Source of the DNA: a virus
Lineage: Duplodnaviria; Caudoviricetes
Virus record (IMG/VR): IMGVR_UViG_3300042292_000140
Location: 1 to 53,253 of that record
DNA: 53,253 nt
Strand: one strand, 5' to 3'
Positions 2,527-20,020 of this stretch are shown piece after piece. The position numbers and the translations under genes were made by a program. Each line of letters opens with the position of its first letter. The stretch's first letter is position 1. The notes under the pieces are model-generated. The model saw only the letters and a program-made list of their open reading frames with translations, ran no database searches and was not told where the DNA came from.

Positions 2527-2584
2527 TTAACCACGCTTTCAAGAAGGCGAAACAATAATAAAATTAATTTTGGAGTAAATAATT

Positions 2585-2890: not shown

Positions 2891-2907
2891 CAAATACTCC
2901 TACTCTA

Positions 2908-2932
2908 GCCGCTAAGCCAAGTGGCATTTTTT
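2908..2932 (+). terminator. Possible intrinsic terminator
   Basis: GCCGCT-AAGCCA-AGTGGC hairpin followed by A and T6. Confidence 0.4.
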
Positions 2933-2948
2933 AATACAAAGGTGATTT

Positions 2949-3101: not shown

Positions 3102-3346
3102 GCGCATCTTTAGTTTTAACATTATCATTTTTAACAGTCGATACCACAATCGACAAAAAAGGCCATACAACACGTCACGAAACGATTGCCTATACAACAA
3201 CGGCAATACCTTACGATAGCCGCCAGGCATGTGCTAATGCGCAACAGGAATGGCAGTTTGCTGTTGGTGCTTACCAAATGTCAAAACGCCCAACTCGGAT
3301 TATTACGGCTGTCTGCAATGACAGCGCAACGGGAGTGGTAGAATGA
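3098..3346 (+). CDS. Hypothetical protein with hydrophobic N-terminus and two Cys
   Basis: ATGA overlaps at both ends; YDSRQACANA...TAVC. Confidence 0.65.
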   Translation: MSASLVLTLSFLTVDTTIDKKGHTTRHETIAYTTTAIPYDSRQACANAQQEWQFAVGAYQMSKRPTRIITAVCNDSATGVVE

Positions 3347-3768
3347 GCTTATTGACTGAAAAACAAATTGACTAAATTATCGACATGGCAACTCATCAGG
3401 ATGAGTTTGCCAGAATTCTGAAGTTAAAATTTGATAACTGGAATGAAAATCAACCAGATCAATTTGAACCCAACTGGGATGAAATACCGGAAGAAGTGGT
3501 TGAAGTTCAAATGAAAATAGACTGGTTGAGACCAGACACCGGAGATTATTACGAAGAACCGTTCTTTATTAAAATTTATAAACGCCCGTTACGCGCTCAT
3601 ACTCATGCGCAAATCATGATGAAATACGCTGAGGTTGCGGCTCGGAGGATTGATCCTTGGACGGAGTTTGAAGTCTTTATGATTGATGATCAAGAATGGG
3701 TTTCTAATAACGGTCCTTTGTATTTTATTGACAACTGTCAATATCGCCATATTGGGGAAACAAAATGA
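3343..3768 (+). pseudogene. Hypothetical gene with in-frame TAA at 3373-3375 (or a shorter gene from ATG 3385)
   Basis: ATG 3343 has a GGAG SD and an ATGA overlap and is in frame with 3385..3768: MSLLTEKQID*IIDMATHQ... Confidence 0.5.
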
Positions 3769-3965
3769 AAAACGATTTAATTTGGGTGGCTATTTGTTCA
3801 TTTGCAATTGGTGCATTGCTTTGCTTTATTACAATAGCAGCAACACACAGACATCATTATGAAATCATTAAAACAAATATTGGCGAGTTTGTTTTAAGAG
3901 ACAGCAAACTATACGGGGTGTATGAGCTAAGTCGGGATAATCAAGGGAACATGGTAGCAAGATGA
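3765..3965 (+). CDS. Small membrane protein
   Basis: N-terminal hydrophobic stretch; ATGA overlaps. Confidence 0.65.
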   Translation: MKNDLIWVAICSFAIGALLCFITIAATHRHHYEIIKTNIGEFVLRDSKLYGVYELSRDNQGNMVAR

Positions 3966-4120
3966 AACAGATTGCATTAGAAGAACACCTGATTAACAGG
4001 CTTAACGATCTTAAAGAAGAACGTAAAAGCCTGAAGCGTCAAAAACTGCGCAGCATTAAAGAAACCATTGATATTCAATTTATATTGGCAAAATTTAGAG
4101 AGGAACGTAAACATGGCTGA
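3962..4120 (+). CDS. 52-aa coiled-coil hypothetical protein (not in ORF track)
   Basis: MKQIALEEHLINRLNDLKEERKSLKRQK...; ATGA overlap. Confidence 0.55.
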   Translation: MKQIALEEHLINRLNDLKEERKSLKRQKLRSIKETIDIQFILAKFREERKHG

Positions 4121-4190
4121 ATTAATTTTTTGGACAGGCATTTTTGTTTTGATAGTTTGTTTTATGGTGGAGTACGCGCGTGGAGATTGA
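4113..4190 (+). CDS. 25-aa single-TM micropeptide
   Basis: MAELIFWTGIFVLIVCFMVEYARGD; GAGG SD; overlaps both neighbours. Confidence 0.45.
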   Translation: MAELIFWTGIFVLIVCFMVEYARGD

Positions 4191-4257
4191 CGACATTGCA
4201 GCATTAATATTCTATGTGTTAGCACTCATATTAGCGGGGATATGGCTATGGCATTAA
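4180..4257 (+). CDS. 25-aa single-TM micropeptide (GTG start)
   Basis: MEIDDIAALIFYVLALILAGIWLWH; GGAG upstream; fills the gap in a coupled gene chain. Confidence 0.4.
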   Translation: MEIDDIAALIFYVLALILAGIWLWH

Positions 4258-4409
4258 TTAAGCCAGTTGAGAAAGTAACACCAACGCCAAACGCAACAAA
4301 CTGCCAGCATAAAACATGGCGGCAATATGTCAGCAGAGGAATTAGGGAGTGTGATTCGTGCCATGAAATACGCCCTATTTTTGATTTAAAAATTGAACAT
4401 CAAAGGTAA
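4248..4409 (+). CDS. 53-aa putative Zn-binding protein
   Basis: MALIKPVEK...NCQH...ECDSCHE; GGGG SD. Confidence 0.5.
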   Translation: MALIKPVEKVTPTPNATNCQHKTWRQYVSRGIRECDSCHEIRPIFDLKIEHQR

Positions 4410-4413
4410 TAGC

Positions 4414-5055
4414 ATGGTGCAACCAATAAAAAGAGATTTAAAAGTATCGCTTAAAGAGTTGGAAAGTATAAAAGAAAATATTATTTACTGTGGTGGAACA
4501 GGAACATTTTACCGAAAAAGAACGCCTGACAAACCGTTGTCTTTTAACTACGCAAATCGGCAAGCCACTATTTGCGTTAAAAAAGAAAACAGTAAAAAAT
4601 ACTTTACCGCATGGCGCATGGCTGTTTTCTTTTCACATGGTTATTATCCAAGTTTTGAGGATGCTGTTATTTTTAAAGATGGCGATAATTATAATTTTAG
4701 AATTAATAACATTATTGTTTGCCATCCAAACGAGGATGAACAGACTGTTTTAGACTTTGCTACTGAGCATAATTTATCACCACAAACGGTTAATTATCGC
4801 ATGAGAAATGCAATACGATTTGAGCGCATTGTAAAAAACTGGAGAGTGTTTTTTTATGATAAAAAAGAGTTTACGAAATACTGCGGTGACATGATTGGTA
4901 GAAGGTTGGTTGTTGATGATGAAGGAATCGAGCATATACAAATTAAGCGCATTAATTTATCAGAAAGCCAGCGCGGAAATAAAACCGCACGGGAATTTTT
5001 AAAAACGTGGATTGGCGACATGCCTACACAATGGGAGATGACATTATGCAGATAA
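4414..5055 (+). CDS. Degenerate HNH-endonuclease-like domain plus HTH-like domain
   Basis: AWRMA...GYYP...VIFKDGDNYNFRINNI resembles the HNH_3 pattern; FATEHNLSPQTVNYRM is HTH-like. ATG 4414 is preferred over TTG 4393. Confidence 0.55.
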   Translation: MVQPIKRDLKVSLKELESIKENIIYCGGTGTFYRKRTPDKPLSFNYANRQATICVKKENSKKYFTAWRMAVFFSHGYYPSFEDAVIFKDGDNYNFRINNIIVCHPNEDEQTVLDFATEHNLSPQTVNYRMRNAIRFERIVKNWRVFFYDKKEFTKYCGDMIGRRLVVDDEGIEHIQIKRINLSESQRGNKTAREFLKTWIGDMPTQWEMTLCR

Positions 5056-5480
5056 AAAAAGTAAGACCAATCGCGGTTATTCCGCAATTTCAAACCGAAG
5101 GCGCAGCCGCTATTGATTTATGCGCTTGTATTGAAGAAACCATGCTTTTAACACCAGAAACGCCCGTGCTAATTCCTACAGGCATTGCAATACATATTGC
5201 TGATAAGTCTGTTGTTGGTTTGATTGTACCACGCAGTGGGTTAGGGTTTAATTATGGCGTTGGTTTGATGAACACGGTTGGCGTAATTGACAGTGATTAT
5301 CAAGGCGAAATTATGGTTAAGTTGCGCATGACACATGGTGATAGTTATCGAATCCAACCTAACGAGCGCATTGCTCAAATGTTTTTTGTGCCTGTATTGC
5401 GTCCGATATTTGAAGAAGTTGAAGAATTTAGCGCAGTGACTGAGCGCGGTGTTGGTGGATTTGGGAGTACAGGGAAATGA
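5046..5480 (+). CDS. dut: Trimeric dUTPase
   Basis: Motifs AAIDL, PRSGLG, GVIDSDYQGEI, RIAQ, RGVGGFGSTG. Likely start ATG 5046. Confidence 0.96.
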   Translation: MQIKKVRPIAVIPQFQTEGAAAIDLCACIEETMLLTPETPVLIPTGIAIHIADKSVVGLIVPRSGLGFNYGVGLMNTVGVIDSDYQGEIMVKLRMTHGDSYRIQPNERIAQMFFVPVLRPIFEEVEEFSAVTERGVGGFGSTGK

Positions 5481-5677
5481 TTAGTACAACAGCTTATATT
5501 TTAATTATCGCTGTCACAACTCACGGTGAGCTTACACAATCAACAATTGAATTTGCGGATAAGGCTTCGTGTGAAAGCGCGGCAGTTAAACAGGATTTTG
5601 CATTTAAAAATTTGCAGTTTGCAGGTAGATGGAACTTAACCTGTCATCCTTATCAGCTTACTGGAGAGAAGAAATGA
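5477..5677 (+). CDS. Hypothetical protein with hydrophobic N-terminus and two Cys
   Basis: EFADKASCESAA...LTC; ATGA overlaps. Confidence 0.65.
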   Translation: MISTTAYILIIAVTTHGELTQSTIEFADKASCESAAVKQDFAFKNLQFAGRWNLTCHPYQLTGEKK

Positions 5678-5726
5678 AACAATGCACAAAGTGTTTAGAA
5701 ACGCGCAATGAGTTTGAGAATTTTTA

Positions 5727-5885
5727 ATGAAAGATTGGCTTTCAAAAGATCATCCCGAAGAAACTATTTTAGTCATTACTAAAGGACGATGCGCTGAGTA
5801 TATGGAATTGCTAAAATGGCTTGCTGATAATCCAATGGATCCTATCAGCGTAAGCAATCTAGTATTAAGCAGGCGAGAGAGATGA
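5727..5885 (+). CDS. 52-aa hypothetical protein (not in ORF track)
   Basis: MKDWLSKDHPEETILVITKGRC...; TAATG and ATGA overlaps. Confidence 0.45.
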   Translation: MKDWLSKDHPEETILVITKGRCAEYMELLKWLADNPMDPISVSNLVLSRRER

Positions 5886-6007
5886 AACCAAAAATTAAAA
5901 AGGTAGGCAATTATTGGTTTTGCTATACCGATTTTTCAAGAGTTGCTTCTGGCATTACACCAGAGGCAGCCTATAACAAATGGATGGAATTAAATTATTA
6001 TGATTAG
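5882..6007 (+). CDS. 41-aa phage protein (not in ORF track)
   Basis: MKPKIKKVGNYWFC...SGITPEAAYNKW; overlaps the start of the glycosyltransferase gene. Confidence 0.55.
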   Translation: MKPKIKKVGNYWFCYTDFSRVASGITPEAAYNKWMELNYYD

Positions 6008-7529
6008 ACCAATTTTTTTTGTTAATGTTGATATTGGCAAAGGTTTGGCAGGAATTGAATCATCTGCCATGCTTAGATCAGTTATGTTTAATGATTATTT
6101 AAACATAAATGCAATTTATTTAACCAATTATTATAATTCTCAACTTCATAAAAACAAAAAGCAATATCAAAATTCTGGACGCATGAGTTCGTCAATGAAA
6201 GTGTTTAACATGTATGATTTCTTTCAAGAAATTACTCATATTGAATATGAAGGTAAAAAAGTTTTGCCAGAAATTTTAGCAGCGCATAGAAAAGTAGCTG
6301 TGTCAGACTCTAAAGACATGCGGTTTTTTACAAAAGACGGAGATTTTTATGCGTATTGTAAGTGCAATGATGATGGTGCTATTGAACATGTAAATTATTT
6401 TGAAGATAATCAAATTGTTCGACGTGAAGTTTTTGACTGTCGTGGTTTTTTAAGTCGATCTGAATTGTTTTCATTTGCATCTGATGGATCAAAGATAACA
6501 AACGAAATTTATTATCGCCAGGATGGAACTGTTGCGCTTCACAAGCGTTGTTTAATTTCTGAATCTGATATTTCTATTCAGTCAATTTACTTGACGGATA
6601 AACATGGTCACATTATTACAAGATTTTTATCCGACGAAGACATGCTTGATTTTTGGGTTGATGCGCTTGTTAAAACGCATAGCAACGCTATTTTTATTGG
6701 TGATAGAAACAAAGAATATTATAACGCAATAAAAAAAGCAAATGGTGAAGACATTAAGATTATTCCAATTATTCATAGTGTTCATACTTGCGATGGTAAA
6801 AACATCATGGAAGCTGAAACGAATCATTTCTTTAGGCCAGTGTTAGATGATCCGGCAAATCAAGATGCTATCATTGTCTTTACAGATGAACAACGTCAAG
6901 ATATAGCTTCACGATATGGCAACGCTAATTATCACATTATTCCACACTCGCATTCTCCAGTAGAATATAACACGCCATTTGCAGAACGTAAGCGCATGAA
7001 GGTTGTCTACTTAGCTCGCTACTCATCTGAAAAAAATCACAAATATGCGTTAGAAATATTTAAAAAAGTGCTTGAAACCTTACCTGATGCAGAGCTTCAT
7101 TTATATGGATTTGGTGACGAAAAAGATTTCATTAACACTTTTGTTAAAGATAATAATTTATCAAACAATGTATTTGTTAATCCATTTGAATCAGATGTTA
7201 ACAAAATTTATCAAGAGTCAGTGTTGTCAATATTGACTAGCACATGTGAAGCATTTTGTTTGAGTGTCATGGAAAGTTTATTTAATGGATGCCCAGTTAT
7301 TGCACTCGATATTAAATACGGTCCGTCAGCAATGATACAAGACGGTAAAAGTGGGTTTTTAATTGAACACGATGATAATTTTGAGGATAACTTTGCAAAT
7401 AAAATAATTGAAGTTCTAGCCAATGATAAACTTAATGAGTCGCTTATTGATTATGCTGCAACATCAATGGACGCATACACGCATAGTGCTGTTGCACAAC
7501 GATGGCAAAAACTAATTAAATCATTTTAA
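6000..7529 (+). CDS. GT4 (GT-B) glycosyltransferase, SdgB/GtfA/TarM-like, with DUF1975-type beta insertion
   Basis: GLAGIES..LR..F, NMYDFFQE, FDCRGFLSRS, IHSVH, ARYSSEK, LHLYGFG, and EAFCLSVMES (EX7E)...PVIALDIKYGP. Confidence 0.9.
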   Translation: MIRPIFFVNVDIGKGLAGIESSAMLRSVMFNDYLNINAIYLTNYYNSQLHKNKKQYQNSGRMSSSMKVFNMYDFFQEITHIEYEGKKVLPEILAAHRKVAVSDSKDMRFFTKDGDFYAYCKCNDDGAIEHVNYFEDNQIVRREVFDCRGFLSRSELFSFASDGSKITNEIYYRQDGTVALHKRCLISESDISIQSIYLTDKHGHIITRFLSDEDMLDFWVDALVKTHSNAIFIGDRNKEYYNAIKKANGEDIKIIPIIHSVHTCDGKNIMEAETNHFFRPVLDDPANQDAIIVFTDEQRQDIASRYGNANYHIIPHSHSPVEYNTPFAERKRMKVVYLARYSSEKNHKYALEIFKKVLETLPDAELHLYGFGDEKDFINTFVKDNNLSNNVFVNPFESDVNKIYQESVLSILTSTCEAFCLSVMESLFNGCPVIALDIKYGPSAMIQDGKSGFLIEHDDNFEDNFANKIIEVLANDKLNESLIDYAATSMDAYTHSAVAQRWQKLIKSF

Positions 7530-7535
7530 ATAAAT

Positions 7536-7560
7536 AAGCCGCTTTTCAGCGGCTTTTTTT
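7536..7560. terminator. Intrinsic terminator between the convergent early and late arms (probably bidirectional)
   Basis: AAGCCGCT-TTTC-AGCGGCTT followed by a T run; A-rich on the other side. Confidence 0.85.
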
Positions 7561-9229
7561 ATTCTTCTTCGTCGTATGCATCTTGTGCGCTTTGCAGTTG
7601 ATACATCATATTGTTTAAATACTTTTGATCTATTCCAGCCGCATCTAATGCATTTTTATAAGCATTCAATCCTTTTTCACCATACCGTGCAGCTTGACCA
7701 GCCTTCACAGCAGACTCACCAATAATTCGTGGCGATGATAATAACAAATCTGCTATCGTTGCTGGTATGCCACCCGCTAAATATGCACCTACAGATGTTG
7801 CTCCTGCGCGTGCAAGACCTCTAGGCGCGTATGGTGCTAATGCTTGACCTGATAGCATAGGTAGTACGTTTTCCGCGCCATATGGCTCAAGTTCTTTCAA
7901 TTTATCCATGCGCAATCCATACGAAGTATTAACATTGTTGCGTGTTAATCCTTGCGCCTTGGTTAACTGAGTTTCATCTTTTGTATTAGGCTTTAGATTA
8001 AATGTTTTTTCAATATCATCAGCTTCTTTAATTCTGCGTGCTTGATCTCGCATTAGCCACTCATACGCATGTGATTGTTTTGCAATTTCATCTTTTACAG
8101 CGTTTGATGTTTTAGAAACCATCATGGTTTTTGGATCTCTAGGATTATTCCAATCGCCAAGCTCATTTATGGCTTTTTTAAATGAATCAAAACCCGCAAC
8201 ATTTCTAAAATCTTTACCACGAGGAATACCTTGCAATCTCTGCATTGCTGTTGGCTGTTGTTCTTCTTTCCAACGATTAATTGCATCAATAATTTCATCA
8301 CGATGTGGTTGCAATGCAAGATTTTCATCAAAACCTTGTCTTTTTTTAATGTTTATTGCATTACGAGCCGCTTGTTCAACTGGCACAAAATCAAGTGGTT
8401 GATACCTATTAAACAATTGTTGCAAACTTTCATTTCCTCTAATTTGATTCATCCCAGTTGTATAATCATCTGATGTTTTTGCTCTCATGTTTTTAAGTGA
8501 TTGCGTTAAAACATCAACTGGCTCAGTAAGCGATGTGCCTTCTTCTTTGCGCATGTGTCGCATTAACGCATCTAAAGGATCACCACCACTATAGCCAGCT
8601 TGGTACGCTTCACGGATAGGCACATCACCAACACCTGTGTGCGTTCCTAATGCTGACGCGGTTAAATTGCTAATAGGTTCTTTTAGTTTTCCTACCGCTG
8701 CAAAGGGTGCAACACTTGGATCTAAATTTGACAATGCGTTTAATGCTTTATTTTTTGTAAGCAGGCGTGCTGGTTGAATAAAGGTTGCTAAATCCGCAGC
8801 AACTCTTGCAGGATGTGTAGCCAATGTTTTCTTGAAATTATCCATACTTCCATATTCATCGGTTATTGCTTGAAATACGGCTTGTAGTTTTTCAGGATTT
8901 TTAGCTGTTTCTGGATTGAGTTTGTACATCACATCAATCACCGGCTGTGGCAATACTTTTTGAACTGCCGCATTCCCTAAATCTAATGCGGCTTGTGCTG
9001 ATTCAATTGGATGCATTAAAGGCTCAACAGATGACTTTGCAACATCTATCACATCCATAGGTAAATTAGACAACGCTTCTTTTGGAACATCAGACCATTT
9101 ACGGTTTTGATCTTTTTCCATTTCGCCTTTTAACTTATCAACCTTTTCATAAATCTTTAATGATAATTCTTTATCACCAAGATTGTATGCATCTTCAGCA
9201 TCGTTAACTAAATCATCAATTTTACTCAT
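7559..9229 (-). CDS. Putative ejection/internal virion protein
   Basis: Helical Ala-rich protein at the end of the late operon; C-terminal hydrophobic segment followed by SSPRIIGE. Confidence 0.55.
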   Translation of the reverse strand: MSKIDDLVNDAEDAYNLGDKELSLKIYEKVDKLKGEMEKDQNRKWSDVPKEALSNLPMDVIDVAKSSVEPLMHPIESAQAALDLGNAAVQKVLPQPVIDVMYKLNPETAKNPEKLQAVFQAITDEYGSMDNFKKTLATHPARVAADLATFIQPARLLTKNKALNALSNLDPSVAPFAAVGKLKEPISNLTASALGTHTGVGDVPIREAYQAGYSGGDPLDALMRHMRKEEGTSLTEPVDVLTQSLKNMRAKTSDDYTTGMNQIRGNESLQQLFNRYQPLDFVPVEQAARNAINIKKRQGFDENLALQPHRDEIIDAINRWKEEQQPTAMQRLQGIPRGKDFRNVAGFDSFKKAINELGDWNNPRDPKTMMVSKTSNAVKDEIAKQSHAYEWLMRDQARRIKEADDIEKTFNLKPNTKDETQLTKAQGLTRNNVNTSYGLRMDKLKELEPYGAENVLPMLSGQALAPYAPRGLARAGATSVGAYLAGGIPATIADLLLSSPRIIGESAVKAGQAARYGEKGLNAYKNALDAAGIDQKYLNNMMYQLQSAQDAYDEEE

Positions 9230-9231
9230 GG

Positions 9232-10464
9232 TTAATTACCTCCGTGCAATTTTCTTAACTGCTCAAGACGATCATTTTTATCAGCATTTTTATCTGTATT
9301 TAAATTTTCGCTAAATTTAGGACGATGTTTTTCTGGAACAACTTCTGTCATGCCTTTAATAGCTGTAACTCTGTTTCCAATTTTTTGCTTTATAACTTCG
9401 TCACTATCACCAGGTTGTGGAAAATACAGACGATTAGCTTCCGTAATTTCAAATGGTGAAATAACAGCACCAGATTCTTTTCTGTTTACAGCCGTTATAA
9501 AATCGCGTTGTGCATTGCTAATTTGTTGAGTATTGCTGCTTAATTGACTGTTTACAATATCCCCAATAATAGGAACACCTTCTGTTGCACGTTGTGCTTT
9601 TATACCCATTGGAGAATAATCACCTATTTTACTAACAATATCGTGTGATCTAATCATACGTTGTGCAAATATATTTGCTTTTGATTGATCCTCAGTCAAT
9701 GGTTTTTCTTGATTAGCACTGGCGGGTTTTTGTCCAAATGCTTCTGATTTTTTTACAAATACAGCTTCGCCAGTATTACGATCTATAATAGCAACGGGTG
9801 CTGATTCTGACTCTGGATGAAAAGGTGGTTGTCCTATTGCGCTTGAAGCATCAACAAATTGCGGTCCATTTGGCCCCATCACTTCTTTTAATGATGGTTG
9901 TGGTGGATTGCGTGTGCTTGTTAAATATTCACGCATTCTTGCCGCTTTTTCTGGCGATGCACCTGCTATTGCATCTGCAAATAATTCAGCTTGAGATTTT
10001 TTTGGAGCAACATTATAACGCGCAAGCATCGACCCTAAACTTTTCTCGTCTGCGCCATACAGCTCTGCGATGGCTTGACGTGATGACAACTGCTTTGCGA
10101 TGTTCTCATTGTGTTGCTTACGCTCTGACGCACGACTTTCTGCCATCGCATTAGCAACATTCATCAATGGCTCACCAAAACCTTTTGTTGAAGATGGTGC
10201 TGCAAGAGCCGCTGCCAGCTTAAAGTACATCTCTGACTTGTCTTCGGGTTGCTGATTGATTAAGTTCTTCTCAAGCGCATCACGAAGTAACGCACGTTGC
10301 GCCTCAGCAGTTTTGCGTGCTTCACTATATTGAGCGAACAATTGTTTTTGCATGTCTGGATTAAGTGAATAATTTGATGCCAAATCTTGAATCGTCGGCT
10401 GTTTATCCTCCATGTCGATGTCATTGACACCATAGTTTTCTGCTAAATCTTCAATATTTGCCAT
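9232..10464 (-). CDS. Putative ejection (DNA transfer) protein
   Basis: LTEDQSKA..FAQRM and RDFITAVNRKESGAVI...YFPQPGDS motifs recalled from podophage injection proteins; position in the ejection block. Confidence 0.6.
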   Translation of the reverse strand: MANIEDLAENYGVNDIDMEDKQPTIQDLASNYSLNPDMQKQLFAQYSEARKTAEAQRALLRDALEKNLINQQPEDKSEMYFKLAAALAAPSSTKGFGEPLMNVANAMAESRASERKQHNENIAKQLSSRQAIAELYGADEKSLGSMLARYNVAPKKSQAELFADAIAGASPEKAARMREYLTSTRNPPQPSLKEVMGPNGPQFVDASSAIGQPPFHPESESAPVAIIDRNTGEAVFVKKSEAFGQKPASANQEKPLTEDQSKANIFAQRMIRSHDIVSKIGDYSPMGIKAQRATEGVPIIGDIVNSQLSSNTQQISNAQRDFITAVNRKESGAVISPFEITEANRLYFPQPGDSDEVIKQKIGNRVTAIKGMTEVVPEKHRPKFSENLNTDKNADKNDRLEQLRKLHGGN

Positions 10465-10499
10465 TAAATTTCTCCATATAATCTGTTAATTTTGTGGTC

Positions 10500-13400
10500 T
10501 TAACCACGATTTAGGAATCCTAATTGCGACAACATCATATCATCATAACCTGGATATTGTGCTGTACCACCACTAGTCAATGTATTACTTCCAGCATTCA
10601 TTGACGAGTTGTTGGCGTTATTACTCCAGTTGCTATTCGCGTTGTTGTTAACACTTGAGCTAGTATTATTATTAATGCTGTCACTAATATAATTCAAAGG
10701 AGATGGGTTGTAATCAAAGTTTTGAAATCCAAAATCACTTAAATTCCAACCTGTCGGAATGTTACTGCCGCCCCAGTCACCAAAGTTGGTATTATAACTG
10801 TTGCCAAGTGTACTTCCCCAAAAATTTGCACTGCTTAAATCTGCATATCCTGGCGTAACATTTGGAATAGTTGGGAAGTTCCACATAGAGCTTGGTGCTA
10901 ATGCGCCAAGATAATCAAATGATGGATTGTCGTATAAATTAGTAATGCCTTTGATTGCTTCATCATAAATTGGATTAACTGTTTCTTGATTTACTTCAGC
11001 CGGTGTGAAGAAGTCTTCAATAGATCCAACTGCGCCTTCAATTTGTCCTATTAACTTTTCTACTGATCCTTCAACATGCCCGACTATATCTTGCCAGAAA
11101 CTACTTCCTAGTCTATCTGGATTTAAAAGGACAGGCTCACCTGTTGCATTGCCTTTTGAATCTATAGGAGTGGCGTAAAATGGTGCTTCGCTAAAGTCAA
11201 CCGCAATAGCTCGTGCATTTTCTTTTAAGTCTTCATTCCAAATACTTTGCACTTTCATTGAATCTGTAATGCCGCCACCACCTGTTAGTTCAGCGTATCC
11301 AAGTGTACCTATTGTTTGTAATATTTTAGCTGTAATAGGATTTTCCGCTGCCCACTGTCTAAATTCATTTTGTACGTTTGCTAATTCAGCGTTGTAGTTG
11401 GTACCATTAAAGACAGATTGAACTTCAGCTATTAAATTAAGACCAAGATCAAACGGAACAAATCCTTTCGTAATCGCCTCAATAGCCGAATAGGTTGTTG
11501 GGAATAAATCTGAACCAATAAGATTTCCGTCTTGCAATGTTTCATTCGCAATGCCTTGATCCATTGCCGCATTTAACTCGGCAATACGGTCAGCGTAGTA
11601 TTGTGCGCTGTGAATAGATGCCGCGATGTGCGTCGTTTCAAGTCCATTGTCTTTGATGTATTGATCAATGGCGGCTGGATCATCTGGATTGTCTTCAACA
11701 AATTTAGCAAATTTTTCTGTTGGTTGATTTGTTTGTGGCAATTTAATTACAGCAACTGGAGATTTTCCATCACCAATAGGATTACCACTTGAATCTTTTA
11801 TAGAGCCTGGTGCCGCTACTGAGAAAATATGACCTTGATTATTTTCGTTATAATTTTCTAATTTATTTCCATCTTGGGTGTAAAAATTATGCGTACCATC
11901 ATCATTAGTGGTTGCCGTAATTGTTGTGGTACCTAAATCATAAATTGTTTCACCAGTATAAGGCGTGCCATCTGGATTAACAGGTTTATAAGCAACATCT
12001 GTACCGCCAATTGCAGATTTAAAATACGGTTGTAACCATTCTGGAACCCACTCTTGTATGCTTTTTCCACTGACTATCGCATCTGCCGAATTAAAAAGAT
12101 CTTTAAACCATGTTATTGGATCGTCTACATTTTTACCACTAATTAAATTTGATATAGAATCTACTGCATACCCTACAGGTGGCGCAAGATATAAAGGAGA
12201 TTTTAAATATTTCAATAAAAGTTCCGGAACAGTTATTGCATTTGGATTATCGTAATCCATGAACACTTCAGGTTTTGGCAGTGTAATAAATTCAACTGCC
12301 ATTACTTTTGCTTTTTCTGGCGTAACAGGATTTGGTGTATTTTCTGTCGCATTAACAATTTGTTTTGCTATGTCATTTGCTTGTGCTATTTGTGTTACTT
12401 TAGCAGTAGTTTCAGGTGTCGTTTTTGCAATTTCAACTGGTTTTACTTCTGCTGGTTTACTAATAAGATCAACATTAATTACATTAGGATCAAGTTTTGC
12501 CGTTTCCGCTGCGTTAGCCGCATTTTGTACAATTGCGCCCATTTTTGTATGTATAGCATGAGATATACTATCAAGAAATTTGCTTTCTTTAGCACTAACT
12601 GGATGTTGTTTTAAATAGGCTTTAATTTCTGCATCAGTAGCATCTGTTGTTTTAAGCAATGCGGCATTGATAGCATTTTCACTGACATTGTAATTTTTAG
12701 CCATTTCACTAACTGTTGGCATTTTAGTAGGTTGCGAATTTTTGTTTTTAATCCCATCAATAATTTCGTAGATGCGTGGGAATCCTTCAATGCTTCCTAT
12801 GCGTGCATACCAACCACGAACTTGTTCAGCACTAAGTGTTGGATCTGAAATCATAAGTGTTGCTGCATGAACTACGTTTGGTGCAACATGATACTTAGCC
12901 GCAAGGTTATCCACTGTTGGATTTGCTTTAGCTGCTGCATCTAACTTTTTTTGTTTTTCAATAGCTAAAGAATTTGCAGCACTTGCAGATGCATAAGCAG
13001 AAGCTGAGGCACTAGCAGCTTTTGCAGCATTAGCAGAATTTGCTGATGCGGTTGATGCGGCTTTACTTACCGATGTAGATGCACTTAAAGAATTGGCTTT
13101 TTCGGTGCTTAATGATTTAAGTTCACTTAATGATGTGGATTTGCTTAATGAATTTACCGTGCTTACAGATTTCGCTGCACTTATAGATGCTACGGTACTT
13201 GCTGATTTTACTTCCCAAGTAGAATGTGAATGTGACGTTGCTAGAACTTTTTCTGCACTTAAAGAATTAGCTTTTTCTACGCTTGCAGATTTTGCATTAA
13301 AATCTAATACAGATTTGCTTAATGAATTTACGGTACTAATAGACTTTAATGCGCTTATAGAATTAGCGGTACTATTTGATTTAACCTCACTTAATGATTT

Positions 13401-16400
13401 AAATCGCTCTGCACTTAAAGATTTTACTTCGTTTACGGAATTTGCTTTGCTTTGAGAATTAACCTCGCTCACAGATTTTGATGCGCTTAATGATGCTAAC
13501 GTACTTGCAGACTTTATTGCATCTGTTGATTGCAATACGCTTAATGAATGTGATTTTTCTGCACTTAAAGAATTGGATTTTTCGGTACTTAAAGATTTAA
13601 TATTGCTAACAGATGCCGATTTGCTTAGAGCTGTAACCTCACTTAATGATTTTGATGCACTAATAGAATTTATTGTGCTTGTAGATTTTGCTGTAATTGT
13701 ACTTAAAGAAGTAGCAATACTTAATGATTTAGATGCGCTTATAGAATTAGCGGTACTATTTGATTTAACTTCTTTTAAAGAATTAGCCGCGCTTACTGAT
13801 GCAGAAATACTAAATGATTTTGCGGCACTCAATGAAGTATTAGCACTTAAAGATGCCGATGTACTAAAGGATTTAGCCATTGATGCGCTTGATGCATGAG
13901 CATCATTCAAGGATTTTGTTGCGCTTACAGAGTTAGCCACACTTAATGAGTTTGCCGAACTTAACGAGTTTCTAGCACTTAAAGATGAAGATGCACTTGC
14001 CGATCTTTCTATGGCCGCACTGGACGTAGTAGCAACACTTAATGATTTAGACTCACTTAAAGAATTAGCAGTGCTTAATGATTTAGATTCTTTTAATGAA
14101 TTAATAGTGCTTGTTGAAGCCGATAAACTTATTGATTTTACTGCTGATGTGCTTTGCAAATTTGCTGTGCTTAATGATTTTGATGCGCTTGCCGATGCTG
14201 ACGCGCTTGATGCTTTTTCGTCACTTAAAGATTTAGAATGATTAGCAGATTCTGCAACGCTTAATGATGCAGCAGTGCTTAATGATTGTTTAGCACTTTG
14301 TGCATTAGATGCACTCGTGGCAAGAGCAACTTTTAATGATCCAGCGGCAGATAACGAATGCTCTTTAGCTATAGATTGAACGGTTGATATGCTTAATACA
14401 TGCTCAGTGCTTATAGATTTTACGGTGCTTGTCGATGCAGATTTAACGTCCGCCAAAGATTTGTCTGCTTCTATCTTTTTTTGCAATGATTCTGATTTTG
14501 CAACACTTGCCGAGGATACTTTATAAGCACTTAATGATTTTGCTACGGTTAACGATTCTTCTTTTGCAGACGCAACAGACGTTGCAGAATTTGCACGAGA
14601 AGTGCTTGCATCTTTATTTGCTTGCGATAAAGAATTATAAGCCGATTCTAATTTTGTTTGTTGCTCTGACGTGTATGGTCCAATTTGTGAATAACTAGAT
14701 TGATTAGGATTTTTCTCAACTGTTAAATTATTTATTTCATTAGACGATGTACTTTGATTTGGTGTATTACTAACTGGCCCTGCAAAATCATTGACATTAT
14801 ATTTATTTGCCAAATCGTTTGTTGTTGTTTTTGTCGCATCAATAGCCTTTTGCTGTTCTGGAGTATAAGGTCCCATTTGCACAGAATTAGGCTGATTAAT
14901 ATTGTAAGCCGATACAAGATTATCCAATGTTGCAGGTTGATTATTTTGATTTTGAGCATTACTAACCGGACCAACAAAATTATTTGCAGATTTTTCTTTT
15001 TCAAGTTTTGCTTGTTCATCTGCTTTAATTTGTGCATCAGCTTGTACTTTAGCATCAATAGCTTTCTGTTGTTCTGGTGTATATGGCCCCATTTGTACGC
15101 TATTAGATGGATTGCCAGATACCAAATCATTTAATGTTACTGTTTGTGGTGCTTGATTAGGATTATTACTGACAGGTCCCATAACGTCATTTGGTACTTT
15201 AGGCACAACAGGTGAAATAACATCCGTTACCGTAGCACCAGGATCAAGCGTTGGCTTACCAGTATTATCCACCGTTGTTAGTGTAATTCCAGATCCATCA
15301 ATTGGTGTTTTAGGTGGAGTTCCAGGTGGAGTGCTATCTGGTGTTCCAGGTGGAGTTCCAGATCCAGTACCACTACCAGAACCAGTAGACTCAGTAGAAC
15401 CAGTTGAACCAGTAGACTCAGTAGAACCAATAGAACCAATAGAACCAGTTGAGCCTATAGAACCTGTAGAACCAATAGAACCAGTAGACCCTGTAGAACC
15501 AGTAGACCCTGTAGAGCCTATAGAACCAGTTGAACCTGTAGAACCAATAGAACCAGTAGACCCTGTAGAACCAGTAGACCCTGTAGAGCCTATAGAACCA
15601 GTTGAACCTGTTGAGCCAATAGAACCAGTAGACCCTGTAGAACCAGTAGACCCTGTAGAGCCTATAGAACCAGTTGAACCTGTTGAGCCAGATCCGCTTC
15701 CGCTATCAGATGTATTTCCTGATAAAGATGAATATGTAGATTCTAATGCTGACCCACTTCCAGAATCAATTACAGATCCACTAAAAGAATCAATTACAGA
15801 TCCACTTCCACTAAAAGAACCTGTGCCACTTCCAGAACCTGTGCCACTTCCACTAAAAGAATCAATTACAGATCCACTTCCACTAAAAGAACCTGTGCCA
15901 CTTCCAGAACCTGTGCCACTTCCACTAAAAGAATCAATTACAGATCCACTTCCACTAAAAGAACCTGTGCCACTTCCAGAACCTGTGCCACTTCCACTAA
16001 AAGAATCAATTACAGATCCACTTCCACTAAAAGAACCTGTACCACTTCCAGAACCTGTACCACTTCCAGAACCTGTACCAGAACCTGTACCACTTCCAGA
16101 ACCTGTACCAGAACCTGTGCCATCTGGAGTGCCAGGTGGAAGAACGACTGTTGTATCAGAAATTGCACCGCCCGTTACGGTATCTTTAACAACAGGTTTT
16201 GTTTCTGGTGCTTTATAATTTTGATAATTAGGATTGCCTAAAACATCACCCCACCACGAACCAGTTGCATTAACTAAGTCATAACGATTCTGATTGTACT
16301 TATCCATTAACGCTACTAATTCTGGTTGCGTTGTTGTTGGATTATTCTTTAATGTTTCATTTACATTTTTAGTGTAATTTTCGTAAGCAGGTGTACCAAA

Positions 16401-16679
16401 CTGTGGAATAACACTATTGCCAAGTTGTTTTTTGTATAAATCAGATTGAGTAGCAGGCGATTGAAATTGTGGCGCAGAATACATGTTTGTATTTTGCAAA
16501 CGATTATTGTATTCCTTTAAGTATTCTTGATACTTGGTTTGATCCGCGTCATACGCAGCTTGTTGCGCTGCATTATCAATCGTTATTGGTCCAGTTGGCA
16601 TAGGCGTGCCGCCATATGTATTGGTCGGATTGCTTAAGCCATATTGTTTCAATAACTCATCTAATTCATAACCGTACAT
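10500..16679 (-). CDS. 2059-aa serine-rich repeat protein in the ejection module
   Basis: Long ORF with AGGA SD; contains GSG, GST and (K/N)SLS repeat blocks; flanked by putative ejection genes. Confidence 0.8.
12960..14640 (-). repeat. Degenerate Ser-alternating hexapeptide repeats, (K/N)-S-(L/I)-S-x-x
   Basis: For example [18 protein letters not shown]; recurring CTTAATGA and CTTAAAGA words on the + strand. Confidence 0.85.
15380..15690 (-). repeat. 9-bp coding repeats (GST/GSI triplets) with a 72-bp higher-order period
   Basis: Near-identical 72-bp units start at about 15468, 15540 and 15612. Confidence 0.9.
15760..16125 (-). repeat. 72-bp tandem repeat encoding [24 protein letters not shown], plus GSGT runs
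   Basis: Units start at 15778, 15850, 15922 and 15994. Confidence 0.9.
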
Positions 16680-16694: not shown

Positions 16695-18218
16695 TTAAGA
16701 AGTTAAACCTTTGTAAATAGAAAAAGCTGAAGCCGCTTGTTGCAATGGTGATGGCGCATAAGATCCACCAACGGTTGTATTTTGTGTTGTAGTAATGCTT
16801 GGAATAGTATTAGCAGGAAGACCACGAATTTGTGCATTCATCCAATCAAGTTGATTTTTCGTGTAATCTTGACCCTGTTGCCATTGTTGTTGCGCTGCGG
16901 TCAGTTCAGCTTGTTTTTGTGCTTGCTGTGCTTGACCAGCCGCTTCAAGCGTTGCCACATCAAGATTTTGTGCTTTTTGCTGATTACCAAGCATGGAAGT
17001 GTAATCATTTAATGCGCCAATTTGACGGGTTGCATCTTGAGCTTGTGCGCCTTGAACATCTTTAGCGGCTGTCAATCCAAGTTGTTGTTGCTGACCTGCT
17101 TGTTGTGCTTGTTGATTTGCAATGGTCGCTAAATTTTGTTGCTGTTGCGCTGTTAATTGACCTTGTGTTTGACCAATATTAGCTAAATTTTGTTGTTGTT
17201 GAGCAGTTAATTGACCTTGCGTTTGACCAATATTGGCTAGGTTTTGTTGTTGCGATGATGTCAATTGACCTTGTGTTTGACCAATATTTTGATACGCTTG
17301 CGCTTGTTGTGATGCCAAGTTTCCAGCGGTTTGTCCAAGTGTTGCTTGACGCGCTAAGTCTGTTTGATTAGCTGTCATTGCTTGACCGTAACCTTGATTT
17401 GCAAGTTTAGATTGTTCTGCCAAAATTGCTTCTTGTGTATCACGAAGCGCACGGCTACCAAATTCACCCATGCGATTACTGCCGAATTGACCAGCTTTAA
17501 TAAACTGATCCGATACTTGTGGCAATAAAGTTTCGCTTAAATTACGCGCACCTTGTTTTGCAAGGACATCCATTACATTTTGCTGATATGGGTTCATATA
17601 ATTACCCACATCAGAATATGCAGCTTTACCAGCCGATGTTAAATAAGGATTTGCATTAGCAGTAATATTTCCAGCACTAGTATTGCTGTTGGTTAAATAT
17701 TGATTTGCCACTGTTGATGGCGATAATGCTTGTGCAGATACTAACGACGTAGCAGCAGTTAATGGATTTAAATTTGCGGCACTTGTTAGGTTGCCAGTAC
17801 CAGCCGTTGCAGGATTAGCACCCACAGCCGATGCCCAATTTGTACCTGCATTTCCTAACCAAGTTGTAGGTGTATTTGGTGACAAATAACTAGTTTGACC
17901 CGTGCTAAGTCCTGTAGCCGTATTAGAATTCTGATACGCCTTCATCGCTGTAGCGGCATTAGTAAGACCAGCATTCATTCCTGTTGGTGAATTAAACCCC
18001 GTAGAATTTTGCTGAACCTGAGAATAGGCTTGCGTTTGATTAGGATTTAACCCAGCAACTGTTGGCAACTTATATGGCTCATAATTAACAGACGCAGCAT
18101 TTCGTGCGTTTGCTATTTGATCATAAATTGCTTGTTGCATCCATGCAGGTGTATCCGTTTTTGTAAAATCAACGGATGTTTTACTTTGTGCTGCTTGGTC
18201 TGTTAAATAAGATCCCAT
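16695..18218 (-). CDS. Gln/Ala-rich putative ejection protein with 18-aa repeats
   Basis: YMNPYQQNV and AGQFGSNR motifs; QQQNLANIGQTQGQLTAQ repeats. Confidence 0.6.
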   Translation of the reverse strand: MGSYLTDQAAQSKTSVDFTKTDTPAWMQQAIYDQIANARNAASVNYEPYKLPTVAGLNPNQTQAYSQVQQNSTGFNSPTGMNAGLTNAATAMKAYQNSNTATGLSTGQTSYLSPNTPTTWLGNAGTNWASAVGANPATAGTGNLTSAANLNPLTAATSLVSAQALSPSTVANQYLTNSNTSAGNITANANPYLTSAGKAAYSDVGNYMNPYQQNVMDVLAKQGARNLSETLLPQVSDQFIKAGQFGSNRMGEFGSRALRDTQEAILAEQSKLANQGYGQAMTANQTDLARQATLGQTAGNLASQQAQAYQNIGQTQGQLTSSQQQNLANIGQTQGQLTAQQQQNLANIGQTQGQLTAQQQQNLATIANQQAQQAGQQQQLGLTAAKDVQGAQAQDATRQIGALNDYTSMLGNQQKAQNLDVATLEAAGQAQQAQKQAELTAAQQQWQQGQDYTKNQLDWMNAQIRGLPANTIPSITTTQNTTVGGSYAPSPLQQAASAFSIYKGLTS

Positions 18219-20020
18219 TATCTTGCTCCTCTCATATAATCTAATGGCGATTTAGCGGATGCACTAAATTGACCCTTTGCTAATTTTTTTCCTTTTTGCT
18301 TGCGAAGCTCTGTACGCATTTTATCAAGTCTTGCCGCACCTGCTTTGGTTGATCCATCGCCAAGTAATGCTACTGTTTCTGCGTCAATAACGTATTCGCC
18401 ATCAGAAAGTCTTGCATCTATTGTATCATCTCTGCCAGATCCAGATCCTTGTGCTAGATATGCAATTTTAGATAATCCACCTTGTGCTTTTAATGCTGGC
18501 GCAGGTTGAGCTACATTGTATTTTCCACTTGATACATCATTCCAATGCAATGCAGTCCACGTTGCAACGTCTACTCCTTCTTTTGCCGCATCAACCGCCA
18601 TTTTATCCCAATCCCATGTTGATAATGGCTTGCTCATATACTGCTGTTGTTCAGTTGTTAACTTGGGAGATGTTGCCACTGCTTGTTGTATTTTGTTAGA
18701 TCCGCCAAGTGCTGATGCAGCAGCTACACCACCAAGACCAAGCAACCCAATTGTTCCCCAGTCCATAGATTTATCGCCAGCAGGTGGTACTGAGCCTGTT
18801 GCAGGTGGTGTTTGAGTATTTGACCCAAAACCAACATTTTTCATTGCATCTTTATAGCCAGCCGAATTTTCATCAGCAGTTTGTTGCACTGCTTGATCAG
18901 CAGGAGAATTTTTATCCCAAACTCCTTTTGCAAGACCTGCTAATGCACCTGATGTAATTGCCTGACCTGGTTCATAACCTGCTGTCAGCATATTACCGCC
19001 AACCCGTGCGGCTGTATTTATGCCACTACCTAAGTTTGGACTTCCCGTTGCAAATTTATTGGCTAATTGCGGGCCAGCACCAGAAAGCGCACCACCAATA
19101 CCACCCTGCAATGCACCTTTCATAATGTCTTCATTAGTCAATGCATTCATACCACCGCCAATTAATGCACCGCCCACTGCTGACTGTGCAATTGGGTTTT
19201 TAATGCCTATAGCACCACCAATTTCAGATCCTAAACCAGCGTTTAATCCACCGAGTACACCAGATTGCAATCCACCTTTTAGTATGTTGTCACCCGTTAA
19301 GGCTGCCGCACCCGCACCTACTGCACCAGCAGCTAATGCTGTTCCTGCAATTTGACCTGCTTTACCTAGTCCAAAACCAGCCGCGCTACCAAGATAATTA
19401 CCTACTGCTGGCGCAAACACACCAATTGCCGCAGGCAAAATGGTTTTAATCACGTTTTTCCAATTCCACCCAAACTCACGAAGACCTGTGCGTGGATTGA
19501 TAGAACCTGATGCACCCATGTTTTTTAGCATAGCCGCTTCGCGTGGGTTGATATGCGCAAGCATCGTATCCCCACCACGACCAGCGGCTTGGATATGTTG
19601 CGCGGCACTTGCAAGACCGCCTTGTGCCATTGTTTGCGCAGGCATCATGCCTTGTGGTGATTGCGCAGGTGGCATCATAGGACGCTGTTGCGGTTGCGGC
19701 ATCATTCCTTGATTTGGCTGTTGCTCTTTACCTTCGATACGATCTCGCAAGCCATACAGTGCAATCAACAATGAAATGATAACTTGAGCATTGAATTCTG
19801 GAGGAAGCGTATCTTGATCTAACTTGCCATCCATAATGGCAGCAGCTCTGAGCTTGTCGTAATGCTCTGGATGATCCACTGCGGCTTCTAAGAATTTAAT
19901 CAAGCTATCAATGTCGCCAGATGAAATAGGCTGATCTGCAAACTTTTGCTCCATCTGCGTAATCGCTTGCTGATAAGCTGGGTTTCCGCGAACTAATTCT
20001 ACTAATATTTGTTTATCCAT
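18218..20020 (-). CDS. Gly/Ala-rich putative ejection (pilot-like) protein
   Basis: GRGGDTMLAHINPREA...INPRTGLREF, a long glycine-zipper region, and DDTIDARLSDGEYVIDA. Confidence 0.6.
   Translation of the reverse strand: MDKQILVELVRGNPAYQQAITQMEQKFADQPISSGDIDSLIKFLEAAVDHPEHYDKLRAAAIMDGKLDQDTLPPEFNAQVIISLLIALYGLRDRIEGKEQQPNQGMMPQPQQRPMMPPAQSPQGMMPAQTMAQGGLASAAQHIQAAGRGGDTMLAHINPREAAMLKNMGASGSINPRTGLREFGWNWKNVIKTILPAAIGVFAPAVGNYLGSAAGFGLGKAGQIAGTALAAGAVGAGAAALTGDNILKGGLQSGVLGGLNAGLGSEIGGAIGIKNPIAQSAVGGALIGGGMNALTNEDIMKGALQGGIGGALSGAGPQLANKFATGSPNLGSGINTAARVGGNMLTAGYEPGQAITSGALAGLAKGVWDKNSPADQAVQQTADENSAGYKDAMKNVGFGSNTQTPPATGSVPPAGDKSMDWGTIGLLGLGGVAAASALGGSNKIQQAVATSPKLTTEQQQYMSKPLSTWDWDKMAVDAAKEGVDVATWTALHWNDVSSGKYNVAQPAPALKAQGGLSKIAYLAQGSGSGRDDTIDARLSDGEYVIDAETVALLGDGSTKAGAARLDKMRTELRKQKGKKLAKGQFSASAKSPLDYMRGAR

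Follow-up and report, generated by a model that had tools for sequence, protein, structure and literature searches.

IMG/VR record IMGVR_UViG_3300042292_000140, analysed here over its whole length (the window, 53,253 bp, with an estimated completeness of 98%), derives from a virus of the Caudoviricetes and encodes both a glycosyltransferase (GT) of 509 amino acids (aa) and a giant protein of 2059 aa that carries long serine-rich repeats. The most economical explanation of this combination is that the two form an enzyme-substrate pair, with which the phage glycosylates its own protein, and we give this reading a probability of about 0.55. The original prediction for this DNA had the phage glycosylating its own virion protein; phylogeny and co-occurrence in related phages both speak for that claim, but the enzyme proved to be no orthologue of SdgB or GtfA, and the numbers of genomes behind the co-occurrence are small and non-independent.

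Sequence and fold of the glycosyltransferase

The GT gene occupies positions 6000..7529 on the + strand, and its product is a GT4 enzyme of 509 aa, as had been predicted: it matches the Pfam family Glycos_transf_1 (PF00534) with an expectation value (E) of 4.2e-29 and 101.7 bits, above the cut-off of 26.4. Matches to the Pfam families Glyco_trans_A_1 and GtfA_EBD are sub-threshold (23 bits each) and Asp1 is matched weakly as well, all within aa 7-196. A sequence search of the PDB returned SdgB as the top full-length match (E 1.6e-52), followed by TarM of Staphylococcus epidermidis (9e-36), TarM of Staphylococcus aureus (3e-31) and GtfA (1e-25 and 1e-19). According to the accessible part of the report on SdgB (PMC8561734), entries 7vfk-7vfo are SdgB structures; the 7ec entries hold the same sequences and bear the name SdgB in their Foldseek titles. 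Among the NCBIfam families, SdgB ranks first with 222 bits, followed by SdgA with 221 and GtfA with 119 (118.6). A model built by AlphaFold2 (AF2) from 64 homologues has a predicted local distance difference test (pLDDT) value of 95.4 and displays a GT-B fold with 10 strands within aa 97-209, which constitute a beta-rich insert of the DUF1975 type in the N-terminal (acceptor) Rossmann half. In a Foldseek search with this model, SdgB came first with template modelling (TM) scores of 0.86-0.89, GtfA reached 0.84 and TarM ~0.8, and the full-length matches overall spanned 0.74-0.89. As judged from the model, the phage enzyme is a member of the DUF1975-containing GT4 subfamily, which comprises SdgA/B, TarM and GtfA.

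The accessible main text of PMC8561734 ascribes uridine diphosphate N-acetylglucosamine (UDP-GlcNAc) binding and catalysis in SdgB to Gly15, His246, Arg329, Lys334, Glu406 and Glu414. All six of the residues named in that portion of the source are identical in the phage GT (G18, H259, R340, K345, E417 and E425, respectively), including the donor-binding Arg/Lys pair (R340/K345) and the E-x7-E motif (E417/E425). R340, K345 and E417 do not vary among the 64 homologues, and no fewer than 90% of these also have E425. Because the fold is SdgB-like and the six named donor-binding and catalytic residues are all kept, the phage GT is very probably an active enzyme.

Placement of the enzyme in its family

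A HMMER scan of 1.84 billion representative sequences with the GT gave 344 matches at E <=1e-30. A FastTree phylogeny was calculated from 138 rows (161 matching sequences minus 23 whose match spanned <430 query positions), and an IQ-TREE phylogeny from 39 rows, by a quick search under LG+C20 with support from the Shimodaira-Hasegawa-like approximate likelihood ratio test (SH-aLRT) only. For SdgB, SdgA and GtfA of S. aureus, contigs deposited under the label 'phage' served as the source of the reference sequences, which were checked by NCBIfam. In the FastTree phylogeny, the phage GT fell within a clade of 114 rows (support 99), separate from a 10-row clade of SdgA/B (support 99). The 114-row clade reaches Gram-negative bacteria, since its named relatives include Succinivibrio and Chelativorans proteins. 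The IQ-TREE phylogeny united three phage GTs with those of the bacterial loci L026, L027, L028 and L031 in one 7-row clade (SH-aLRT 98), which was separate from fused proteobacterial and Selenomonadales forms, from SdgA/B (support 95-99) and from Lactobacillales GTs. TarM was left out of both trees and its position rests on PDB scores; TarM (~112-127 bits) and GtfA score under all of the 150 representatives listed, which have at least 163 bits. The phylogenetic check proposed at the outset therefore yielded no grouping with teichoic-acid, lipopolysaccharide (LPS) or DNA-modifying enzymes, and SdgB and SdgA are the closest characterised relatives by sequence, as SdgB is by fold.

The wider family also includes longer proteins. 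P0031, P0032, P0036, P0043, P0046 and P0067 (842-1639 aa) have this GT type fused to PGA_cap (CapA-like), polysaccharide pyruvyl transferase or methyltransferase domains, and fused GT forms of ~1050-1650 aa occur in Limnobacter and Selenomonadales genomes. Many Lactobacillales GT pairs adjoin giant Ala/Ser/Thr-rich proteins.

The giant serine-repeat protein

The proposed substrate is encoded at 10500..16679 on the - strand, as the third gene from the GT gene with those for a 556-aa and a 410-aa protein in between, which agrees with the predicted late protein of 2059 aa three genes away. Its orthologues are found in related phage contigs. From the N-terminus, all on the - strand, a conserved domain (aa 1-170, 16170..16679) is 85-98% identical in relatives and 96% identical between P0019 and the giant protein of the phage contig G010:C53. 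It is followed by Gly-Ser/Gly-Thr dipeptide and further repeats (aa 185-329, 15693..16127; S 0.37, G 0.32), encoded by a 72-nucleotide (nt) DNA repeat in 4.1 copies with 99% matches, and by collagen-like G-S-T/I triplet repeats (aa 330-470, 15270..15692), encoded by a 9-nt repeat in 34.9 copies. The latter comprise 30 uninterrupted G-X-Y triplets from aa 331 and match Pfam Collagen (PF01391; E 1.4e-10, 41.3 bits, cut-off 27.2). The earlier figure of ~250 aa of Gly-Ser-Thr repeats is borne out as to their presence but falls short of their length of ~285 aa (aa 185-470). A middle region (aa 471-689, 14613..15269) contains three GPYT(P/S)EQQ motifs, the motif being kept in all orthologues, and leads to the alternating-Ser repeat region (aa 690-1250, 12930..14612). 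The remaining non-repetitive C-terminal region (aa 1251-2059 and the stop codon, 10500..12929) has no match in Pfam or PHROG.

The alternating-Ser region, predicted at ~560 aa and found to measure 561, contains 178 Ser residues (32%) and has a net charge of +24. Serines recur with a period of 2 and a six-residue super-period, as reflected by Ser autocorrelations of -0.41, +0.35 and +0.49 for lags of 1, 2 and 6 residues, respectively. Overlapping SxSxS words number 61 in the giant protein vs at most five in any other window frame of at least 80 aa, and no other gene of the window has Ser repeats. Because six of six Ser codons are used and the DNA tandem repeats are weak (period 18, 2-4 copies, 68-84% matches), the Ser pattern is kept at the protein level and is no microsatellite. 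The idea that this region arose as an antisense or shifted frame of the Ala-rich cassette of related phages, described below, is unsupported, given the use of all six Ser codons and the lack of resemblance to the AKADAK-type cassette. Antisense frame 1 of the region (window 12930-14612, + strand) is almost open, with 6 stops in 560 codons, and is Leu/Ala/Asp-rich; it is probably a by-product of the codon pattern.

For the giant protein, NCBIfam returned 'serine-rich protein' (E 6e-9) and the ClfA repeat region (E 2e-8), both compositional. In ESM Atlas look-ups, the C-terminal part reached 0.81 and the Ser region 0.89 with low recognition values, so that these are leads only, and a cluster of 'accessory Sec-dependent LPXTG adhesin' (0.83) is likewise a compositional lead. 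Serine-rich repeat (SRR) adhesins have a long N-terminal signal of the accessory Sec (aSec) pathway (KxYKxGKxW), a binding region flanked by two SRR regions, and LPXTG at the C-terminus; neither of the two motifs is present in the giant protein. The C-terminal 766 aa and the N-terminal 170 aa had no tblastn match in deposited phages, and an AF2 model of the C-terminal 766 aa (7 sequences) was unusable (pLDDT 36.9).

Co-distribution in related phages

Scans of viral contigs with the GT alone or with a 7-sequence alignment found one other record only. Contigs of phage relatives and bacterial loci (L004, L006, L008, L009 and L027-L031) often end inside repeat-coding regions, and short-read assemblies therefore hide the very region needed for a co-occurrence test. 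Where the giant orthologues could be followed, they share the N- and C-terminal domains and differ in which of two sets of repeats they contain. The Ser set, which consists of GS/GST repeats and the alternating-Ser region, is present in the window, L002/L003 (1842 aa), L023 (1797 aa), G010:C53 (1818 aa), P0018 (on a 53.7-kb contig) and the cut L009. The Ala set, composed of GGxGxD repeats and a long Ala/Lys/Asp/Glu helical, coiled-coil-like cassette, is present in L005 (1981 aa), L004 (cut), P0019 (on a 12.8-kb contig) and the cut L007. The Ala/Lys/Asp/Glu cassette of GT-less relatives occupies the same flanks as the Ser region.

The GT and the Ser repeats occur together in 4/4 GT-positive records, namely the window, IMGVR 3300042396_000149, Ga0114962_10001939 and G010:C53, and the enzymes of the latter three are 100, 99 and 90% identical to that of the window. 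Two records (3300043775_000956 and 3300042346_000212) lack the GT at a covered junction, and both carry the Ala-rich cassette (2/2) and no Ser repeats (0/2). Among these six informative records none is discordant. The proposal that Ser repeats might be found only where the GT is present thus received an affirmative answer, 4/4 vs 0/2, in a small and non-independent sample. Seven further relatives are uninformative: L006, L008, L013 and L018 (together, records 3300020044_005828, 3300042907_001046, 3300020047_004009 and 3300010965_000218) have no GT and their repeat region lies off the contig, the contigs of L007 and L009 do not include the GT site, and L025 is a 1.4-kb GT fragment.

Comparison of individual contigs revealed a mosaic structure, which strengthens the case for the pairing. 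Between the window and L002, DNA identity is 99.3% in the GT gene and 96.5% in the Ser region, and only 86.7% in the intervening 556-aa gene and <=70% in the giant C-terminus. Conversely, L003 and the GT-less L017 are 98.9% identical in the 556-aa gene and 91% in the giant C-terminus and differ at the GT and the repeat cassette; in L017, ~65 bp separate the end of the 556-aa gene from the small ORFs (open reading frames) that precede the GT in the window. Likewise, the G010:C53 giant protein and P0019 are 96% identical at the N-terminus and 92% in the C-terminal 779 aa, with cassettes that cannot be aligned. A thymidylate-synthase homologue (ThyA; Pfam E 6e-44; L004:7059-7892, - strand) occurs in five GT-less relatives (L004, L006, L008, L013 and L018). 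It is a separate insertion between the dUTPase gene and the end of the replication arm and is absent from the window and L002, so two accessory cassettes alternate near this junction.

Bacterial loci of the closest relatives

Locus scans with the 7-sequence GT alignment gave 53 loci in metagenomes and 79 in genomes, a 15-sequence alignment being too diverse. The non-phage loci with the highest identity to the phage GT are L026 (44%), L081 (38%, a 1.6-kb contig), L027-L030 (36-37%) and L031 (34%). In each of these loci, the GT gene is preceded by a low-complexity repeat ORF of the same orientation, the beginning of which lies beyond the contig start; in L026, L027, L028 and L031, the GT gene begins within ~120 bp of the end of that ORF. 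The repeat protein of L027-L030 has SESSDYASASTVAA-type repeats (S 0.19-0.20), that of L031 has S/A/Y/D repeats (S 0.22), and that of L026 combines Ala/Asp/Glu/Thr repeats with a Ser/Thr stretch. A C-terminal domain of ~70 aa is common to these three types of repeat protein and is also encoded upstream of the L081 GT. NCBIfam and Pfam assign these repeat proteins to no family, and a search for longer named proteins containing the domain found none.

Two of these loci, L026 and L031, have type I secretion genes next to the GT gene. L026 (3-9251) is an operon of an Ala/Ser/Thr/Asp low-complexity repeat protein, an SdgB-like GT, TolC, two PrtD-type ABC exporters and HlyD, the latter identified by NCBIfam with scores above the cut-offs (TolC 328 bits vs 225, exporters 587 and 612 vs 510, HlyD 340 vs 209). 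A TolC-like outer-membrane efflux protein is encoded downstream of the L031 GT, and L028 lies on a diderm chromosome, which encodes BamB and Der. The gene content of L026-type loci suggests that Gram-negative bacteria glycosylate substrates of type I secretion.

Proposed particle association of the giant protein

The giant gene lies within the terminal - strand block, in which the genes follow one another in the order 600, 507, 2059, 410 and 556 aa. The 556-aa product of the last late gene (7559..9229, - strand) shares 27% identity with Sm_phiM5_31 of Sinorhizobium phage phiM5, annotated as 'putative internal virion protein; detected in phage particle proteome', and is also homologous to gp062c of Caulobacter phage GB2A. 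The 507-aa protein weakly matches PHROG 4287 'DNA ejection protein' (E 9.5e-5). Upstream of the giant gene, those for the 507-aa and 600-aa proteins (16695..20020, - strand) correspond in order to GB2A gp064c and gp065c, and the order of the 609-, 600- and 507-aa genes as a whole is that of GB2A. The 410-aa gene between the giant and 556-aa genes (9232..10464, - strand) is 49-99% identical in relatives and belongs to no Pfam or PHROG family. Judged by this gene position, the giant protein may be internal or ejected, whereas external fibres are the more usual setting for collagen-like and GGxGxD repeats.

The proposed pairing and its alternatives

If the two proteins form an enzyme-substrate pair, a cytoplasmic, SdgB-like retaining GT4 would be made from the replication-arm transcription unit and would O-glycosylate serines, perhaps threonines, in the Ser-rich modules of the 2059-aa protein before or during particle assembly. 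The target modules would be the alternating-Ser region and possibly the Gly-Ser or collagen-like Gly-Ser-Thr region. The modified giant protein would travel with the particle, because it is encoded inside what is probably a gene block of the internal-virion or ejection type. Since GT-less relatives carry a coiled-coil-like spacer and GGxGxD repeats on the same scaffold, the glycosylated Ser module may be read as an alternative route to a long, extended, soluble and protease-resistant spacer. The GT itself would be a captured member of a GT clade dedicated to repeat proteins. We would propose only tentatively the wider scenario, in which an unrecognised SdgB-like clade is the dedicated modifier of type-I-secreted Ser/Ala/Thr-rich repeat proteins in Gram-negatives and was captured, together with a Ser cassette, by aquatic podophage-like viruses, where the cassette replaced the coiled-coil spacer in a giant particle-borne protein; no earlier phage would then have had a virion or ejection protein that is mucin-like and self-glycosylated.

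Several points weigh against the proposed pairing. The giant protein as acceptor, the sugar used, the virion location and the purpose of the modification are all matters that we infer, from evidence that is comparative throughout. The GT scores far under the NCBIfam cut-offs (800 for SdgB, 800 for SdgA and 575 (574.6) for GtfA, TIGR02918) and lies outside the SdgA/B clade in both trees. Because its scores are under the cut-offs of both families and it falls outside their clades, it is, by sequence, not an orthologue of any named member (SdgA/B, GtfA or TarM), and the predicted 'SdgB/GtfA-like transferase' holds for group and fold but not for orthology. All members of its own clade are uncharacterised. 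Among 8 long homologues scanned in the 114-row clade, four carry PGA_cap, one a polysaccharide pyruvyl transferase and one a methyltransferase domain, and two nothing further; the fused GT forms have no Ser-rich neighbours, so that glycopolymers are the probable substrates of some relatives of the GT. The phage repeat is basic, with K/A/L between the serines and a net charge of +24, and the repeats of the bacterial neighbours are acidic and Tyr-containing, so acceptor specificity may not carry over to the phage. Net charge was considered as a guide to the acceptor type and does not discriminate, the whole phage GT having -17 vs -19 for GtfA and its beta-insert -6 vs -5 for SdgB. As for the co-distribution, Fisher's exact test gives p ~0.07 for 4/0 vs 0/2, the GT genes of the positive phages are 89-99% identical in DNA and so stand for a small number of independent events, and only 3-7 kb separate the GT from the Ser repeats. 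Four GT-less relatives whose repeat region is cut off by a contig end and one Ser-repeat relative whose GT site is missing from the contig could be discordant. Finally, should the giant protein be internal and ejected, bulky glycans might hinder its passage through the tail.

The main rival explanation holds that the GT acts on a host surface molecule, such as a type-I-secreted repeat adhesin, an S-layer-like protein, LPS or capsule, and that the Ser repeats of the giant protein are unrelated. Receptor masking of this kind would bring about superinfection exclusion or keep progeny off debris. In favour of such a role, the GT gene is cleanly inserted where the replication arm ends, beside the variable ThyA cassette, as is often the case for accessory 'moron' genes. 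The closest non-phage GTs belong to loci of repeat proteins and type I secretion systems, from which a captured GT could still recognise a host repeat protein, and the wider family includes the fusions to capsule- or polysaccharide-type domains. We nevertheless consider a host-surface target rather unlikely, since it leaves unexplained both the association of the GT with the Ser cassette (4/4 vs 0/2) and the near-identity of GT and Ser region while the DNA between them diverges. Moreover, surface conversion mostly benefits temperate phages, and no integrase or lysogeny gene was found among the ~30 window ORFs scanned with Pfam or PHROGs, which are part of the ORF set.

Under coincidental linkage, the acceptor of the GT would be something else, such as a small molecule or a different protein of phage or host, and the Ser repeats would be an unmodified low-complexity spacer, the two travelling together only through their proximity (within 7 kb) in a handful of related genomes. 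The sample is indeed small and phylogenetically clustered (4 vs 2, with seven relatives uninformative), and repeat cassettes of phage fibres and internal proteins, including GGxGxD, collagen-like and coiled-coil variants, swap without any enzyme. Such a coincidence is nonetheless improbable, given that the same GT clade adjoins Ser/Ala/Thr-rich repeat proteins in independent bacteria (three sequence types in six loci, and L081), that the characterised SdgA/B and the Lactobacillales relatives also adjoin giant Ala/Ser/Thr-rich proteins, and that the intervening DNA recombined while the GT and the Ser region both stayed. Glycosylation of hydroxymethylated bases of the phage DNA, as an anti-restriction hypermodification, is barely credible: the GT gene follows a dUTPase gene, a thymidylate-synthase homologue lies nearby in relatives, GT4-conflict of Pfam is weakly matched (E 6.9e-4, under the cut-off), and phage GT-B enzymes that glycosylate 5-hydroxymethylcytosine exist, which, in the accessible part of a preprint (bioRxiv 10.1101/2023.12.21.572611), are T4 beta-GT-like and adjoin 5-methylcytosine dioxygenase or ThyS-type genes, but the phage GT is acidic (isoelectric point 5.5) and has the three-domain fold of the SdgB/TarM/GtfA type with DNA glucosyltransferase absent from the best 49 Foldseek ranks, the window ORFs scanned include no methyltransferase, dioxygenase or hydroxymethylase family, and the ThyA homologue is found in five GT-less relatives and not in the GT-positive window and L002.

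Comparison with known glycosylation systems

The closest comparison is with SdgB/SdgA of S. aureus, which add O-linked N-acetylglucosamine to Ser-Asp repeat adhesins. The phage GT resembles these enzymes in its top matches by sequence (SdgB/SdgA) and structure (SdgB) and in its three-domain build. Like SdgB, it acts as one enzyme with no partner of the GtfB type, and serines stand at alternate positions in its proposed substrate, as in the Ser-Asp repeats described in the accessible part of PMC8561734. In contrast, identity is only ~26-28%, and one phage GT stands against the pair SdgA and SdgB. Whereas the staphylococcal substrate is an acidic Ser-Asp, LPXTG adhesin, the phage repeat is a basic Ser-X repeat (X being K/A/L/T/N) without LPXTG, and a likely Gram-negative host takes the place of staphylococci.

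GtfA/GtfB, which act on SRR adhesins together with aSec (GspB, Fap1, SraP and PsrP), share the GT subfamily and fold with the phage enzyme. The Ser region of the phage resembles SRR regions in alternating-Ser composition only. The original prediction that the phage carries neither SecA2/SecY2 nor a visible GtfB stands for GtfB (TIGR02919) and SecA2 (TIGR03714), which have no match in the 98%-complete record, SecY2 and Asp1-3 not having been searched as families. SRR adhesins are exported by aSec, in contrast to the giant phage protein, which would be assembled into or packaged with the particle. TarM, the wall teichoic acid alpha-GlcNAc transferase, has its fold in common with the phage GT (TM ~0.8, sequence E 3e-31 to 9e-36) and is more distant from it than SdgB and than all 150 representatives listed. 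The GTs of the bacterial loci L026, L027-L030, L031 and L081 are of the same clade (34-44% identity; L026, L027, L028 and L031 in the tree) and are paired with a repeat protein, as proposed for the phage; they differ in that the bacterial GT genes lie directly downstream of the repeat protein, in L026 within an operon with TolC, an ABC exporter and HlyD, and the giant phage protein lacks the C-terminal domain of the bacterial ones.

Virion glycosylation is known from mycobacteriophages, which infect Actinobacteria and in which capsid and tail-tube subunits are the targets, as opposed to the giant repeat protein considered here. A 2023 study by Freeman et al. is said to regard mycobacteriophage GTs as modifying the phage's own structural proteins. 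To our knowledge, virion glycosylation by phage enzymes is known only in mycobacteriophages, and dedicated Ser-repeat glycosylation only from Gram-positive surface adhesins. No SdgB-like homologue from mycobacteriophages was among the 10 phage-collection records that match the GT. In the accessible part of another report, two putative GTs suggest capsid glycosylation (PMC11256854). Neither an SdgB-like GT with type I secretion substrates nor the combination of an SdgB-like GT and a Ser-repeat virion protein in a phage was found described in the literature searched, which left many subscription papers outside its coverage.

Genome layout and host

The genome consists of a + strand arm (1-7529) with genes for a helicase, a VRR-NUC protein, a dUTPase and small ORFs, and of genes on the - strand for terminase, a 1731-aa polyvalent protein, portal, capsid, adaptor and fibre-like proteins, followed by the block of large genes that ends at 7559. 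The GT had been called the last gene of the early arm; it is the last + strand gene, after those for the helicase, the VRR-NUC protein and the dUTPase. The dUTPase gene (5007..5480, + strand; Pfam dUTPase E 2.4e-27) is present in all relatives and serves as a landmark upstream of the GT insertion site. A two-way terminator-like hairpin (7536..7555; stem of 8 bp, five of them GC pairs, flanked by a T-run on either strand) separates the convergent ends of the GT gene and the - strand structural operon. The scans with Pfam or PHROGs found a primase-helicase, a helicase, PhoH and an AAA_24 ATPase; a DNA polymerase, which the relative GB2A has, was not matched among the ORFs scanned. There are no tRNA genes in the 53,253 bp of the window. 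The 1731-aa gene (40719-45914, - strand) lies between the large terminase and portal genes and has weak matches to ART-PolyVal, the ADP-ribosyltransferase of polyvalent proteins, and to PcfJ; its product is probably a co-injected polyvalent protein, on the basis of these matches. A 652-aa late protein (27336-29294, - strand) with DUF285/BspA-type leucine-rich repeats (Pfam E 2e-34) and a tail-fibre-like C-terminal part is a candidate receptor-binding protein.

Megablast of the region of the GT and giant genes against deposited phages gave no match. The closest cultured relatives are the Caulobacter phages RW and GB2A (portal 50% identical), the Roseobacter phages CRP-901 and CRP-902 (terminase 46-47%) and Pelagibacter phages. 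The host is, as far as such relationships indicate, likely proteobacterial, with Alpha- or Gammaproteobacteria as candidates, and the earlier guess to that effect fits these relatives. Wall teichoic acid, the substrate of TarM, is absent from Alphaproteobacteria. As the closest cultured relatives infect Alphaproteobacteria and the host is therefore likely Gram-negative, a teichoic-acid role of the phage GT is unlikely. The near-complete phage relative G010:C53 (L078; 54,632 bp) was binned in a metagenome-assembled genome titled 'uncultured Methylomonas sp.', which is a weak host hint or a binning artefact.

Implications

The pairing of the GT and the giant protein, if real, would be a variation on known serine-repeat glycosylation. 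A phage of a Gram-negative host would then carry the enzyme together with a modular substrate cassette. Near-isogenic natural pairs, e.g., the G010:C53 giant protein and P0019, which differ only in the repeat cassette, are available for testing the effect of the modification, and glycan-shielded phage proteins are relevant to phage stability, protease resistance and antibody recognition. For the unstudied bacterial system, in which a repeat protein and a GT are encoded with type I secretion genes, one may ask whether a type I exporter lets a glycosylated polypeptide through. If the proposed role holds, the SdgB-like clade would be the Gram-negative counterpart of the SRR protein/accessory-Sec and SdgAB/Ser-Asp repeat systems.

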